Origin: Candidatus Saccharimonadales bacterium
GTDB taxonomy: Bacteria > Patescibacteriota > Saccharimonadia > Saccharimonadales > UBA10212
DNA: 45,600 bases
Reading direction: 5' to 3'
Assembly: GCA_036507655.1 (NCBI GenBank)
Contig: DATCIS010000011.1
Span: 1 to 45,600 of the forward strand
The notes below the pieces were generated by a model. The model saw only the letters and a list, made by a program, of their open reading frames with translations, ran no database searches and was not told the DNA's origin. Shown here piece by piece: positions 18,789 through 31,083 of this stretch (position 1 is the stretch's first letter; each line of letters begins with the position of its first letter). Made by a program: the position numbers and the translations under genes.

Positions 18789-21727
<2,939 letters not shown>

Positions 21728-27049: not shown

Positions 27050-27077
27050 CCCCAAAGCGGAACTCCCCGCTTTGGGG
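27050..27077. other. Perfect 11-bp hairpin of unknown role
   Basis: CCCCAAAGCGG aactcc CCGCTTTGGGG. It sits just upstream of the extended -10 box TGGTATAAT (27092-27100). Confidence 0.5.
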
Positions 27078-27233: not shown

Positions 27234-27310
27234 GCGGGTGTAGCTCAGTTGTTTAGAGCGCTTCCTTGCCAAGGAAGAGGTCGAGAGTTAGAGTCTCTTC
27301 ACCCGCACCA
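27234..27310 (+). tRNA. tRNA-Gly (anticodon GCC), CCA encoded, atypical D- and T-loops
   Basis: GCGGGTG TAGCTC AGTTGTTTA GAGC G CTTCC TTGCCAA GGAAG AGGTC GAGAG TTAGAGT CTCTT CACCCGC A CCA. Confidence 0.8.
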
Positions 27311-27379
27311 TTTCAACCCAAACGTTTTTCAAACAATTGAGGTCAGTTCCTGTCTTATGCAATCAACGAGTTAATTAAA

Positions 27380-27934
27380 ATGAATACCTATGTGATACTT
27401 ATGCGCGGCATTAATGTTGGCGGAAAAAACAAAATACCAATGGCAGAACTAAAGCTGTTTCTTGAAGAACGGGGTTTTAGTAATGTCATCACATATATTC
27501 AGAGCGGAAACGTGATGTTGGCGTCCGACAAACCCGCTGACAAGATTAAAGCCCAAATTGAAGCTACTCTGACTAAAAGCTTCAAACTTGATAGCGAACT
27601 CATCAAAGTTTTGGTTTTGAGCCGTAAACAGTTTCAGGCCGTCATTGATCACAAGCCCAAAGGCTTCGGTGAACAGCCAGAGAAGTACCACAGCGATGTC
27701 ATCTTTTTGATGGATATTGATTCGGCTCAGGCTATGCCCATATTCGCTCCCCGAGAGGGAGTCGACACAGTCTGGCCTGGCGATGGCGTCATCTACTCGC
27801 AACGTCTCAGTGCCCTACGAACCAAAAGCCGGTTGAACAAAGTTATGACATCACCGCTCTACAAGTCTATGACTATTCGCAGCTGGAGCACGACAACAAA
27901 GCTATTAAAACTACTTGAAGAGCAGCTCGGCTGA
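27380..27934 (+). CDS. DUF1697-family protein
   Basis: ORF track. The N-terminus YVILMRGINVGGKNKIPMAELKLFLEERGFSNVITYIQSGNV is typical of DUF1697. Confidence 0.8.
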   Translation: MNTYVILMRGINVGGKNKIPMAELKLFLEERGFSNVITYIQSGNVMLASDKPADKIKAQIEATLTKSFKLDSELIKVLVLSRKQFQAVIDHKPKGFGEQPEKYHSDVIFLMDIDSAQAMPIFAPREGVDTVWPGDGVIYSQRLSALRTKSRLNKVMTSPLYKSMTIRSWSTTTKLLKLLEEQLG

Positions 27935-27992
27935 CAAATTGAAAGCTTTCACTAAATAGTTCAACTTTTGATTACCATATTGCTCAATAGCC

Positions 27993-28024
27993 GATGTTTG
28001 AAATGCGTCAACGATGCCGCACCA
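27993..28024 (+). repeat. GCACCA-terminated structured motif, copy R1
   Basis: GATGTTTGAAATGCGTCAACGATGCCGCACCA. Matches R2 at 28 of 32 positions. Confidence 0.7.
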
Positions 28025-28154
28025 TTATAGTTGCCTTCCAGTAAGCCTTTTAGGGGAGAATTTCACAGACAAAACCTGAGTTAAAGATTATGTAAAACAT
28101 GTTTTAAGTTTTACACTTACTAAAGATGTAACTCTAATGAAAGGGGTAAATGAA

Positions 28155-28541
28155 ATGGCGAAATATATTGATGGATTTGTGCTTATAGTGCCCAAAGGCA
28201 AGGAAGATGATTACAAGAAAATGGCGGAAGAGGGGCGGGATACATGGATGAGGCATGGTGCGCTTGAATACTTTGAATGCAGAGGCGATGATCTCAAACA
28301 ACAGGAAATGGGTGAGGAAAAATCACGAGCTTTTGCCGAAATGGCGGGCGCAAAAAGTGACGAAAACGTATGGTTTTCCTTTATTGTTTTTAACTCCAAG
28401 CAACACCGCGATGAAGTAAACAAAAAGGTGATGGATGAAATGGATGAAAAGTATAAAGATAAAGACCAAAGTGATTTTTCAATGCCGTTTGACATGAAGA
28501 GGATGGCATATGGAGGATTTGAGGTGGCGGTTGAAGGATGA
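28155..28541 (+). CDS. DUF1428-family protein
   Basis: The track ORF starts at 28137. The ATG at 28155 has AAAGGGG upstream. YIDGFVLIVPKGKEDDYKKMAEEGRDTWMRHGALEYFECRGDDL is typical of DUF1428. Confidence 0.8.
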   Translation: MAKYIDGFVLIVPKGKEDDYKKMAEEGRDTWMRHGALEYFECRGDDLKQQEMGEEKSRAFAEMAGAKSDENVWFSFIVFNSKQHRDEVNKKVMDEMDEKYKDKDQSDFSMPFDMKRMAYGGFEVAVEG

Positions 28542-28672
28542 AAGATCAAAAAATAGTTTCAAGTCCTTGATTAGATCCTAAACACAAGACACTAAGCCGG
28601 CTTCAAGTATTAAGTAAGTCGCCTGATAATCCGAATAACTCAACCAGGCGCTTTAGTTTATAATCTGTTATA

Positions 28673-28716
28673 GCAGCGATAGCTGACGTTTGAAATGCGT
28701 CAACTATGTTGCACCA
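28673..28716 (+). repeat. GCACCA-terminated structured motif, copy R2 (full hairpin)
   Basis: GCAGC G ATAG CT GACGT TTGAAAT GCGTC AA CTAT GTTGC ACCA. It forms three stacked helices and a 7-nt loop. Confidence 0.7.
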
Positions 28717-28796
28717 ATTCAACCCAAACGATACTTCAACCGGGAGCTTTCTAACATTTGGGGTCATTAAGGCCTCTTTTTGTTATAGTTAGATTA

Positions 28797-29066
28797 ATGA
28801 GTTTTGAGCAATTTGATGATAAAGAAAAAGAACACGAAGGCGAAAAATACTTACGCTTACTTGGACTCGGACATTTGGCTGACCGTAAGATAGCAACAGC
28901 TAGCGGTACAATACAGGCCAGAGACTTTTTAGATATTTGTGGTGAGCATGCCCGGCCGATACTTGTTGGTTTTGAGACAATGAGCCCCAATGACCCAAGA
29001 TACGGAGACACAAAAAACGCTTTGCGTAGCTTTGTTGGACAATACATAGAGGGGAGACAATCCTAG
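28797..29066 (+). CDS. Hypothetical protein (89 aa), no family recognised
   Basis: The track ORF starts at TTG 28758. The first ATG is at 28797 (MSFEQFDDKEKEHEGEKYLRLLGLGHL). No clear Shine-Dalgarno. Confidence 0.5.
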   Translation: MSFEQFDDKEKEHEGEKYLRLLGLGHLADRKIATASGTIQARDFLDICGEHARPILVGFETMSPNDPRYGDTKNALRSFVGQYIEGRQS

Positions 29067-29092
29067 CCAATAAAAACAGTTAGGTGGGCAAG

Positions 29093-30748
29093 ATGAGTGA
29101 TAATGAAACCTTGATAGCACCTGCCCAAACTGATGCTATTGGTATGCCACCAGCAGAAGCAAGCTATACCTATCAGCGGGCCGATGGAACAGTTGAGCGA
29201 GCATTTAGTGCAGAAGACGCAATTGCCCGCTGCCCTGTGCTTGGTAGACTAGCAATAGAAGCACCTGAGCAGGTTAATACTCTCTTGGAATTAGCGGCAC
29301 TAGGTAAAGAGAAAATAGAGAAAGAAAATAAAGAAGAGCCAGATAAGCCTAAGCTTGAAGAAAAGATAGAAGTTGAGCAAGAGCCTAAAACGAACGAGCC
29401 TAAAAAACAAATTACGGATACCAATACGGAGCGTACTGTCAAACCAGAGCCAGTCTTAGAAATCCAAGAGCACTCTTACGTTGAGCAAGGACTAGCCACA
29501 AAACCTGTCAATACAGCCACAAATCATCAGGCAGAGCCAATAATGAAGCAGGCTCAATCTGAAGTAACTCAAAGAGATGTAAAGGAAACGATTGAGCAAA
29601 CGTCTAATGTGACCCCTTTGGCCACACAGGGTGAAAAAACTGAAATAAGCCCGTCGACGACACAGCCACAAGTAATTGTTAAAAACACAGATAGAAGGAC
29701 AATAGTTGACCGCCCAGAACAAACTGATGCTTTTAGCCATCAGCAGCAATACGAGACCGATGCAGTAAAACCTGTGGTAGCCGAACTAGAGATTGTCAAA
29801 AGCTCAACTATCAGAGAACCTGAACCAGAGATAGTGCTCGCATCTGATAGCAACGATACCCTGAATGAAAGCTATGACGAGTCCGCTGACCTAGAGGGTG
29901 CAATTGTGGCTATGCCTGAAACCGAGCCAACTATCGCTGAGGCTGACTTCATAGACGAAGATTACCCTAGAAGCGAGCTTGACCTAGCGCCTCACGAATT
30001 AATAATTGAAAATGAACCAGAGATGGCAGATATGCAACAAAAGACCGAAGCTTATATAGATGAACAGCTTAGAGCATTATTTGAGCCTGAGACGGTTGAG
30101 ACATACAAGGAATTGCTTGCTTTGACAGCTGCTAACCAAGAAGGAGAGCCGTCTGTTTTTGAAGAAGCCACCATTGTTGGGCCTGTGCTAGAAGCTGATG
30201 CAGAGACAGCAACTCCATCAGACTTTGAAGCCTTTGTCGCCACACAACCAATTAGTGAAGAACCTGTAACTTTAGAGGCTATTCAGGAAGAAGCTAACGA
30301 GCAGCCGCTGGAGCAAACTTTAGTGCAGTTGGTTGAATTATTATCAGGAGCTCCTGAAAAAGCAGATGCTGAGACTGAAGAGAACAAGCTGTATGCAATT
30401 TTGCAGGGAATAGAAGATGCAATGCCCGCTTGTTATATAGGGCAAGAAGCCGCAGAAACAAAACCACGCATTACAGCTGAAATGACCGAGAAATTACTTA
30501 GGCTGTTGCGTGCATTGGGTTATGAAAACCCGAAAGAAGTTTTGGTTTCATTTGTAGCCAGATTTGACTTAGCATTTTTGCTGCAAACATTAAAGTATTT
30601 GTGCCAGCTAAATAATGAGCATAACAGGCAGGAGTTTTTAGCGGTTTTCTCTACCTTTCCAGCAAATGATGATGACGATACACGGCTACGAATAGGAAAA
30701 ATGCTTTTTGGCCTTATTGCTAAGCTCTCTCCTGAACCGAGTGTTTAA
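29093..30748 (+). CDS. Hypothetical large acidic protein (~551 aa) with a long low-complexity E/P/T/Q-rich centre
   Basis: The track ORF starts at GTG 29084. The ATG at 29093 has AGGTGG 6 nt upstream. The N-terminal ~75 aa and C-terminal ~130 aa look ordered. No family recognised. Confidence 0.65.
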   Translation: MSDNETLIAPAQTDAIGMPPAEASYTYQRADGTVERAFSAEDAIARCPVLGRLAIEAPEQVNTLLELAALGKEKIEKENKEEPDKPKLEEKIEVEQEPKTNEPKKQITDTNTERTVKPEPVLEIQEHSYVEQGLATKPVNTATNHQAEPIMKQAQSEVTQRDVKETIEQTSNVTPLATQGEKTEISPSTTQPQVIVKNTDRRTIVDRPEQTDAFSHQQQYETDAVKPVVAELEIVKSSTIREPEPEIVLASDSNDTLNESYDESADLEGAIVAMPETEPTIAEADFIDEDYPRSELDLAPHELIIENEPEMADMQQKTEAYIDEQLRALFEPETVETYKELLALTAANQEGEPSVFEEATIVGPVLEADAETATPSDFEAFVATQPISEEPVTLEAIQEEANEQPLEQTLVQLVELLSGAPEKADAETEENKLYAILQGIEDAMPACYIGQEAAETKPRITAEMTEKLLRLLRALGYENPKEVLVSFVARFDLAFLLQTLKYLCQLNNEHNRQEFLAVFSTFPANDDDDTRLRIGKMLFGLIAKLSPEPSV

Positions 30749-30852
30749 AACCAGTGGTTGAAAAATTCAATCAGGCATCAAGCAGGTTGCCCGATAAGTT
30801 AAACACCTCAGCAAGGTGTTTTAGTTTATAATCATTATTAGCGGTGAGGGAT

Positions 30853-30884
30853 GACGTTTGAAATGCGTAAACTATCCTGCACCA
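30853..30884 (+). repeat. GCACCA-terminated structured motif, copy R3
   Basis: GACGTTTGAAATGCGTAAACTATCCTGCACCA. Matches R2 at 29 of 32 positions. Similarity to R2 extends about 70 nt further upstream and includes TTTAGTTTATAATC. Confidence 0.7.
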
Positions 30885-30885
30885 A

Positions 30886-30915
30886 AAAAATTCCCAACCA
30901 AGGTCGGGAATTTTT
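30886..30915. terminator. Bidirectional intrinsic terminator
   Basis: AAAAATTCCC aaccaaggtc GGGAATTTTT. It sits between the convergent 29093-30748 (plus) and 30940-31083 (minus) genes. Confidence 0.7.
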
Positions 30916-30939
30916 AAGTTTAAATTAAGAGCTTTGTTT

Positions 30940-31083
30940 TTAGCGGCGACGTAGACCGGGCAAGTCAGAAACTTTGGCTTCCCCAGTAATCAGGGCAACA
31001 GCCACGCCCGTTATAACTAGTGCGGCTGCGACCATCATCAAAAATAGGCCGAGAGCTACGGGTGAACCCCAAGTCCATTCCAT
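30940..31083 (-). CDS. Small hydrophobic protein (47 aa, single TM)
   Basis: Below the ORF-track cutoff, so I translated it myself: MEWTWGSPVALGLFLMMVAAALVITGVAVALITGEAKVSDLPGLRRR. Strong AAAGGAGGA Shine-Dalgarno 4-5 nt upstream. A terminator follows downstream. Confidence 0.55.
   Translation of the reverse strand: MEWTWGSPVALGLFLMMVAAALVITGVAVALITGEAKVSDLPGLRRR

Follow-up and report, generated by a model that had tools for sequence, protein, structure and literature searches.

Repeats beside tRNA-Gly(GCC) in a Candidatus Saccharimonadales bacterium: probable attachment sites of serine-recombinase elements

What are the three short repeats that punctuate the genes downstream of tRNA-Gly(GCC) in this Candidatus Saccharimonadales genome? 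They lie on the + strand of contig DATCIS010000011.1, within a 45.6-kb stretch of DNA that was analyzed as a whole (the window), at 27993-28024 (R1), 28685-28716 (R2) and 30853-30884 (R3). An earlier note, made from the sequence alone, had placed them correctly, and a search with a 20-nt R consensus allowing <=3 mismatches finds exactly 3 sites in the window, where shuffles predict 0.01. By direct inspection of the sequence, R1 and R2 share 28 of 32 positions, R2 and R3 share 29, and R1 and R3 share 27, so the 28-29 claimed for all pairs holds for two of them and not for the third. As also claimed, one gene unit precedes each R (a DUF1697 gene, then a DUF1428 gene, then a pair of open reading frames, or ORFs), and all three copies end in GCACCA, which is likewise the 3' end of tRNA-Gly(GCC). 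R is very probably the right-end attachment site, carrying the displaced tail of a large serine recombinase (LSR), of Saccharibacteria elements that the LSR inserts at GCACCA of this tRNA.

Coding and DNA constraint in R

The 32-nt R is the final part of a conserved 114-nt block. An exact scan with the 17-mer GTTTGAAATGCGTNAAC, using one genome per species, returned ~45 Saccharibacteria among chance matches, and in these the match runs on to ...TATNNTGCACCA and for ~80 nt upstream. With an nhmmer profile, 75 R copies across 63 loci were collected for analysis; the further copies that the earlier note had proposed to look for do exist. The profile from relatives matches the window at 27911-28024, 28603-28716 and 30768-30884. 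Homology of ~100 nt between R2 and R3, also noted earlier, is therefore real and reaches R1 too.

What is conserved in this block? First, there is a reading frame on the minus strand. Read from TGGTGC, the reverse complement of GCACCA and the exact start of frame conservation, R encodes WC.IVDAFQT.A......DYKLKHL.E.F.LS..L, and a stop ends the frame at 35-39 codons. Of 53 distinct copies, 52 keep this frame open, compared with 0-3 of 53 for the other five frames, and no copy has an indel. When the search segment itself is left out, the entropy at codon positions 1, 2 and 3 is 0.85, 0.53 and 1.36, and pN/pS is 0.36. In the window, translation of the minus strand gives WCGIVDAFQTSAIEQYGNQKLNYLVKAFNLSAELLFK and a stop for R1 (27911-28024; nhmmer E 7e-21, supported by the family alignment), WCNIVDAFQTSAIAAITDYKLKRLVELFGLSGDLLNT and a stop for R2 (28603-28716; E 5e-28), and WCRIVYAFQTSSLTANNDYKLKHLAEVFNLSGNLLDA and a stop for R3 (30771-30884; E 2e-25). 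Second, the ten codons next to GCACCA (TGG TGC nnn ATA GTT GAC GCA TTT CAA ACn) are near-invariant, third positions included, and they are so also in loci that were fetched via the recombinase described below and not via the motif. Near-invariance at third positions suggests a constraint on the DNA itself.

Could R instead be a structured RNA, such as a tRNA-like minihelix with an ACCA end, or a processing or stability element of a 3' untranslated region (UTR)? The earlier note had raised both and had read covariation, and hence selection on structure, into the three copies. This explanation is now highly improbable and largely refuted. R does sit between + strand genes and the terminators that follow them, and is therefore likely to be transcribed as 3' UTR, and 75.8% of the cells in the proposed helices are paired across R copies, compared with 18-47% when the partners are slid. 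The excess of pairing makes R an imperfect palindrome; a DNA site bound by a protein or a recombinase would look alike, and a palindrome is also expected of a recombinase site. In the larger alignment (51 homologous copies), however, the covariation score of the proposed helices, 0.161, is reached by 429 of 500 shuffles, RNAalifold gives 0 consensus pairs, and the pair 90-104, A-U in 29 copies, is broken in 22 without compensation. Substitutions track the codon periodicity of the opposite strand, and an Rfam scan of the whole window at gathering thresholds finds 10 tRNAs only and no match to R. The details on which the RNA reading was built fare no better: a G.A mismatch (GCGTA) interrupts the central stem of R3, the supposedly variable hairpins upstream in R2 and R3 correspond to codons of the last tail residues in columns that are not homologous, and the conserved TTTAGTTTATAATC is the antisense of codons D-Y-K-L-K. 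R was also considered as the displaced 3' half of a tRNA; the match is confined to GCACCA, and a T arm plus acceptor stem would require a different spacing.

A further alternative, which the earlier note had named as one that would undo its proposal, is that the copies are simple recent duplications of one 3' UTR. Three same-strand copies within 3 kb would suit this idea, but comparison of identities refutes it and leaves it with scarcely any probability. Over 111 nt, R1, R2 and R3 are mutually 55-74% identical and their best matches in other species reach 70-84%, each copy being closer to copies in other species; R1, for example, is 55-56% identical to R2 and R3 and 70% identical to its best external match. 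R1 also belongs to a distinct tail subfamily (EQYGN...), found in loci L031, L032 and L113 as well, and the flanking genes are unrelated.

The recombinase and the complete element

To what does the minus-strand frame belong? In locus L113, the frame of R continues a recombinase-like ORF, and in L098 an ORF of this kind has WCGSGDSNP at its end, which is antisense to a tRNA end. The recombinase-like ORF, used as a query, retrieved 231 small unannotated proteins, all reaching ...KKKSLSAHNSNIWC. Beyond that point they have three fates (antisense of the tRNA, the motif peptide, as in proteins P0001 and P0005, or other sequence), and the longer members carry a CxxC...C..C zinc ribbon. A complete 498-aa gene is present at L075:2072-3568; it matches Pfam Resolvase, Recombinase and Zn_ribbon_recom and the PHROG "integrase" (7e-60). 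The suggestion of a new type of recombination site was thus half right: a recombination site is what R appears to be, but the enzyme linked to it is a recognizable LSR, and the type is not new.

A scan with the L075 LSR yielded 47 loci, of which 29 have a full-length gene (69-98% identity). In every locus showing the region (~30 species), the LSR gene is antisense to tRNA-Gly(gcc) and overlaps its last bases, and the last LSR codons, ...NIWC, are the antisense of GCACCA. On the tRNA strand, the LSR 3' coding region reads GAGCCGAAAGGCTCTTTTT, a canonical intrinsic terminator right after tRNA-Gly. The same feature is seen in the first 35 nt after tRNA-Gly in L075, L121 and ~40 other loci, where the LSR end KKKSLSAHNSNIWC encodes the opposite-strand terminator. 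The element thus replaces the tRNA's own terminator.

The LSR and R meet in L127, where two complete elements stand in tandem. There, AATATTTGAATT... comes immediately after R-GGCACCA at the inner junction, and the ORF of the inner LSR measures 532 aa, with the ending ...NSNIWCRAVDVIQTSAI...GDLITA (...NSNIWCRAVDVIQTSAIALQDDYNLKELVSELELSGDLITA). The same in-frame junction of R and LSR occurs in P0001, P0005 and P0121-P0125. From the 532-aa fusion it follows that the LSR reading frame crosses the attachment site. A far more diverged tail, DKLGNQLTSKAIELEQDVSFQELALMLNLDGELLAV, follows ...NSNIWC in P0067, a 228-aa LSR fragment; the pattern of the motif peptide is still recognizable in it, which makes the tail older and more variable than one would judge from the nucleotide motif.

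Might R encode an independent small minus-strand protein, such as a toxin or regulator with its own start? The frame is under purifying selection, an upstream ATG in R2 would give a 54-aa ORF, and gene callers have predicted proteins of 38-81 aa here. Against this, TGGTGC is precisely where conservation sets in; neither the sequence upstream of it nor a start codon or ribosome-binding site is conserved, and what lies right of GCACCA is mostly a + strand terminator. There is no in-frame start in R1 or R3, and wherever R abuts an LSR gene, its frame runs on from the LSR ORF. An independent protein is therefore improbable. Searches with the tail were otherwise uninformative: the tail peptide, and LSR C-terminal fragments alone, match nothing meaningful in Pfam; the tail profile and the 532-aa LSR have no sequence matches in PDB; a protein search with a 47-aa tail query found 22 small ORFs and zero full-length fusions; and an AlphaFold2 model of P0005 (an LSR C-terminal fragment plus tail, from a 21-row alignment) has a mean pLDDT of 47.

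What does a complete element look like? Among loci that reach far enough, R lies 7-11 kb beyond the LSR gene, oriented like the tRNA, in L121, L124, L135, L136, L138, L143, L145, L147 and L148. A complete element is 8-11 kb long, with the LSR at its left end reading toward the tRNA and R at its right end. The hybrid sites agree with this layout: the GCACCA core stands at the tRNA-Gly end and after every R, and the LSR gene overlaps the core on the tRNA side. The 8-kb element of L121 carries a SpoVG-like protein, three proteins without assigned function, a DUF4238 protein and, side by side, homologues (72% and 40% identity) of the two ORFs that make up the third unit of the window, orf102 and orf554. 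No phage structural genes are present in the L121 cargo, and PHROGs matched only the integrase among the element proteins. A scan of IMG/VR with the LSR found no relatives, and so offers no support for the element being a phage. In L178 and L215, which are without the element, the flanks of tRNA-Gly look like empty sites and resemble the LSR 3' end. Because of this resemblance, an occupied site may still look like the host attachment site (attB).

These observations suggest a mechanism. The LSR would catalyze insertion, with a crossover probably inside GCACCA. Integration would cut the LSR gene at the crossover, and the 35-39-codon tail would end up, together with the DNA arm next to it, at the opposite end of the element, where the two would be seen as R. 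In a circular or tandem form, R-GCACCA would be joined to the LSR 3' end and the tail restored, giving 532 aa versus 498. The 10 codons beside GCACCA would be conserved as a DNA site for the enzyme (the P arm of the element attachment site, attP), and the rest would evolve like protein. A displaced tail plus P arm would thereby explain both the near-invariant codons and the protein-like evolution of the remainder.

Several side observations concern the LSR and its target. The last 107 LSR codons alone, starting ITQTFHDEIA..., are found next to tRNA-Gly in 19 distinct loci, including L130, L158, L159, L161-L163, L165, L166, L056, L048, L068, L091, L098 and L240-L242. All of these remnants start at the same codon, after (A)GGGGG, with unrelated DNA before it, and CCCCTAGGGG-type palindromes lie upstream of several. 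All 19 are free of internal stops, with a pN/pS of 0.29, and the 231 small proteins retrieved above are of this kind. The pattern suggests either that the LSR gene has a second site-specific breakpoint or that a mini-protein (the coiled-coil part) has been retained. R is not confined to tRNA-Gly, as copies end 0-12 nt before tRNA-Val in L075 (246-363) and L136 (around 19536-19641).

Mini-cassettes and the array in the window

How are the units in the window built? Units 1 and 3 start right after GCACCA with (A/T)TTCAACCCAAACG(T/A)T..., part of a ~60-nt stretch referred to here as the type-2 left end. Unit 1 follows tRNA-Gly(GCC) itself, the proposed integration target (27234-27310, + strand; identified by ARAGORN and by Rfam at 70 bits), whose last six bases (27305-27310) are, from the sequence, the core common to all R copies. 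Its type-2 left end (TTTCAACCCAAACGTTTTTCAAACA..., 27311-27345, + strand) has a distal part that is an inverted copy of the R core motif. The cargo is a 184-aa DUF1697 protein (27380-27934, + strand; Pfam PF08002, E 3e-36), and R1, with its putative P-arm site on the + strand and its core at 28019-28024, closes the unit. Unit 2 holds the DUF1428 gene (28137-28541, + strand; Pfam PF07237, with synteny by tblastn) and ends with the core of R2 at 28711-28716. Unit 3 opens with a type-2 left end defined by locus comparison (ATTCAACCCAAACGATACTTCAAC...CTTTCTAACATTTGG, 28717-28785, + strand), within which a terminator scan finds a terminator-like hairpin and T-run (28760-28776, + strand). Its two ORFs, taken from the ORF list, are both on the + strand and without a Pfam match: orf102 (102 aa, 28758-29066) and orf554 (554 aa, 29084-30748). 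The core of R3 (30879-30884) ends the unit and R3 forms the terminal right junction of the array. Directly after it, an A-run, a hairpin (AATTCCC...GGGAATT) and a T-run can be read from the sequence (30885-30917, + strand); a simple terminator scan missed the hairpin because its loop is >8 nt. A short spacer and then an intrinsic terminator also follow the terminal R in L010, L011, L023, L025, L048, L050, L051, L067 and L088. The array thus consists of three units without a recombinase, in series between tRNA-Gly and tRNA-Cys, and the gene order of the window matches that of relatives: tRNA-Phe, tRNA-Gly, R copies, then tRNA-Cys and tRNA-Leu(taa).

Such units are not peculiar to the window. 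The type-2 left end follows GCACCA in 12 further loci (L007, L031, L035, L038, L047, L084, L101, L113, L149, L252, L260 and L277), after tRNA-Gly, tRNA-Leu(tag) or another R, or in a decayed context, and R lies 0.5-2.2 kb after it wherever the locus is long enough. In other species, type-2 ends bound single-gene mini-cassettes of 0.5-0.8 kb with varied cargo (AdoMet_dc-like, glyoxalase, NUDIX, GNAT and DUF1697 proteins). The gene starts at nt 80 in three mini-cassettes, and a cassette unit also carries its own terminator and a promoter-like box. One mini-cassette, in L007 (59-649), is at tRNA-Leu(tag), which also ends in GCACCA. A genome scan with a degenerate type-2 pattern gave mostly chance matches and only 3 new Saccharibacteria loci. 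The cassette-array-like organization and serial tRNA-targeted insertion that the earlier note proposed are borne out by arrays of 2-3 units in at least 10 other genomes (L031, L032, L035, L088, L113, L138, L149, L158, L159, L241, L260 and L340), where a DNA-alkylation repair enzyme, an NTPase and a hydrolase are among the genes carried. Tandem arrays of elements exist in L127 and L130. Each new insertion at the tRNA would shift older units to the right, such that every boundary would read R-GCACCA.

Do the ends of a cassette make a plausible recombination site? Joined in a circle, they would give the junction TGTTTGAAATGCGT-N10-GCACCA-N11-ACGATTTTCAAACA, a 14-bp inverted repeat with 12 of 14 positions matching, centered on the AC/CC of GCACCA; type-2 end and R together make a dyad-symmetric site of ~55 bp around GCACCA. 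By analogy, a dyad junction of this kind is what an LSR attP would look like, such sites being ~50 bp long and imperfectly dyad-symmetric around a central dinucleotide. A GTTTGA in R starts 23 nt ahead of GCACCA, and the tRNA T-loop has a GTTWGA that starts 18 nt ahead of it; GTTTGAAAT in R and GTTWGAG in the T-loop are proposed, from sequence, as candidate zinc-ribbon motifs. In the Listeria integrase, the zinc-ribbon-domain motif is 5 bp nearer the center in attB than in attP (PMC3783163), and the offset seen here suggestively fits this 5-bp shift.

The T-loop in question is itself unusual. It reads TTAGAGT or TTTGAGT, with A or T at position 56, both in the window (27281-27299) and in ~50 Saccharibacteria loci; C56 of the tRNA T-loop is normally invariant. 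The unusual loop overlaps GTTWGA, the proposed B-arm contact of the LSR.

Several observations weigh against reading R as an LSR attachment site and the units as its products. First, tblastn finds no LSR gene or fragment in the 45.6-kb window, so there is no proof that the locus is active, and R1-R3 could be inert scars. Second, a scan of viral contigs for a free circular form came back empty, and a metagenome scan for the R-GCACCA-LSR junction gave 3 matches, all in chromosomal arrays and none in a circle. Third, the left end of the complete element, AATRTTTGAATTATGAGCC, is not an inverted copy of the R arm, and the attP of the complete element would thus be less symmetric than those of the mini-cassettes. 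Fourth, the GTTTGA/GTTWGA match is short and was noticed post hoc. Fifth, a second insertion beside an occupied tRNA would join attP to a hybrid site (attL), a reaction that canonical serine integrases normally disfavor, and yet tandem arrays exist. Finally, unit 2 has no type-2 left end, and DUF1428 is usually the chromosomal gene to the right of the island: by tblastn, it lies directly right of the terminal R in L023, L028, L047, L053, L115, L121, L138 and L161, and the window is the sole case in which an additional R (R2) and a next unit come after it. The proposed model does not account for R2 on the right of this gene.

Are the window units, then, deletion remnants of three complete LSR elements, dead scars that were never mobilized in trans? 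This is possible, although we consider it unlikely. The missing LSR and the lack of circular cassettes are in its favor, as are the cargo of unit 3, which is found inside a complete element, and the many genomes that retain only the 107-codon LSR remnant by tRNA-Gly, indicating that elements decay. However, independent deletions would not be expected to yield the same ~60-nt non-coding left end, with a gene start at nt 80 and unrelated cargo, in several species. The type-2 left end is found at tRNA-Leu(tag) in L007 too, and together with R it makes the 55-bp dyad on GCACCA. Since the window has no LSR and 29 related loci have a full-length one, the units are classed as recombinase-less derivatives or cassettes of the family, and they are most likely mobilized in trans by an LSR encoded elsewhere.

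A broader version of the cassette reading can be put forward tentatively. It may be that in Saccharibacteria a serine recombinase runs an integron-like platform for gene capture, in which cassettes would be excised as circles bearing the symmetric 55-bp site and stacked by an LSR acting in trans at the GCACCA of tRNA-Gly and, occasionally, tRNA-Leu. The LSR would then have its ~35-residue tail only in the excised or tandem state, and the swap might act as a switch. If this doubtful scheme is true, the tail swap could be a built-in switch of LSR activity, stability or directionality.

Could the array be an integron proper, with R as an attC-like site moved by a tyrosine integrase? One gene plus one imperfect palindrome, repeated, with small accessory enzymes as cargo, does recall an integron. 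Nevertheless, Pfam finds no tyrosine-integrase domain in the eight ORFs around the window array, the enzyme linked to the site is a serine recombinase in ~30 genomes, R has no R''-L''/L'-R' architecture and is under coding constraint, and the platform is a tRNA 3' end and not attI. Membership in the integrons is thus excluded, and the likeness stays as a functional analogy.

Related systems and neighboring features

How does this family compare with known mobile elements? LSR elements and prophages (A118/LI, Bxb1, phiC31, SPbeta, TP901-1, and the LSRs of transposons [Tn] and integrative and conjugative elements) have the same enzyme architecture, with an N-terminal Resolvase domain, a Recombinase domain, a zinc ribbon and a coiled coil, and they too have the int gene at one end beside the attachment site. 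Their sites are short, with inverted distal motifs that lie 5 bp nearer the center on the host side (PMC3783163), a pattern that the sites here may share. The family described here differs in its target, the extreme 3' end of a tRNA; in an LSR ORF that runs across attP, such that integration would exchange the last ~35 residues; in its host, a member of the candidate phyla radiation (CPR); and in sharing its sites with recombinase-less single-gene cassettes.

Islands that tyrosine integrases insert into tRNA genes (the Islander signature) are alike in regenerating the tRNA, in their adjacent integrase gene, in direct repeats at the island ends and in serial insertion that leads to tandem arrays. 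Here, however, the recombinase is of another family, the sequence repeated from the tRNA is 6 nt (GCACCA) and not a 15-50-nt tRNA fragment, and the 114-nt repeat is element sequence (LSR tail plus P arm) and not displaced tRNA. The Islander signature is accordingly absent: only GCACCA is shared with the tRNA, and the integrase in related loci is of the serine family. Attachment sites inside a frame are known from other systems. In SSV1-type Sulfolobus viruses, its own attP divides the tyrosine integrase gene into two large parts; in cluster G mycobacteriophages, which also use a tyrosine integrase and show integration-dependent immunity, the repressor loses a degradation tag upon integration. 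As here, the site lies in a frame and integration alters the C terminus of a protein that controls the life cycle of the element, but here it would be a serine integrase that loses a conserved tail of ~35 aa.

Integron cassettes (IntI/attI/attC) show a functional likeness, with units of a small accessory gene plus a site, arrayed next to a fixed platform, and similar types of cargo (GNAT, glyoxalase, NUDIX and DUF proteins). Integrons use a tyrosine recombinase and a single-stranded, folded attC, whereas this family has a serine recombinase, a double-stranded dyad-type site, a terminator and promoter-like box for each unit and a tRNA platform. The tycheposons of Prochlorococcus are alike as small site-specific cargo elements in a streamlined genome, with tandem junctions. 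According to the available portion of the tycheposon study (bioRxiv 10.1101/2020.12.28.424599), 910 of 937 use tyrosine recombinases and a minority use an LSR; that portion mentions neither a frame that runs through the attachment site nor units of one gene with constant ends, and the phylum is different. By analogy, the enzyme and its logic seem to match serine-integrase elements; in target and stacking, the family is reminiscent of tycheposons and of the tRNA islands of tyrosine integrases, and the unit structure resembles integrons in function only.

What are the implications? First, a reference database paper states that targeting of a tRNA is not known for the serine integrases, and the elements described here would be an example of one that acts at the 3' end of a tRNA. 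Literature searches turned up no account of this element in Saccharibacteria. Second, a supposed RNA motif is replaced by a testable mobile-element system, in a phylum (Saccharibacteria, of the CPR) whose routes of gene gain are poorly known. Third, the R arm, the GCACCA core and the type-2 arm, together with a compact integrase of 498 or 532 aa, could be tried as genetic tools in Saccharibacteria, hosts that are hard to manipulate. Fourth, a tail swap on integration would offer a simple handle on direction control in serine integrases. Fifth, hundreds of small "hypothetical proteins" that lack annotation are accounted for by the 114-nt block and the 107-codon LSR remnant, which also account for assembly breaks at tRNA-Gly. 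A search for close relatives of the window in which array content could be compared turned up one, L167 (89% aa identity in a FAD-linked oxidase), and there the contig stops exactly at the 3' end of tRNA-Gly(GCC), a break of the type expected at a repeated or polymorphic island.

Two minor features lie close to the array. Between R3 and tRNA-Cys, the minus strand has a hydrophobic 47-aa ORF without a Pfam match (MEWTWGSPVALGLFLMMVAAALVITGVAVALITGEAKVSDLPGLRRR, 30940-31083). Between tRNA-Phe and tRNA-Gly, a perfect 11-bp inverted repeat (CCCCAAAGCGG / CCGCTTTGGGG, with a 6-nt loop; 27050-27077) may be a terminator or a processing hairpin inside the tRNA cluster.

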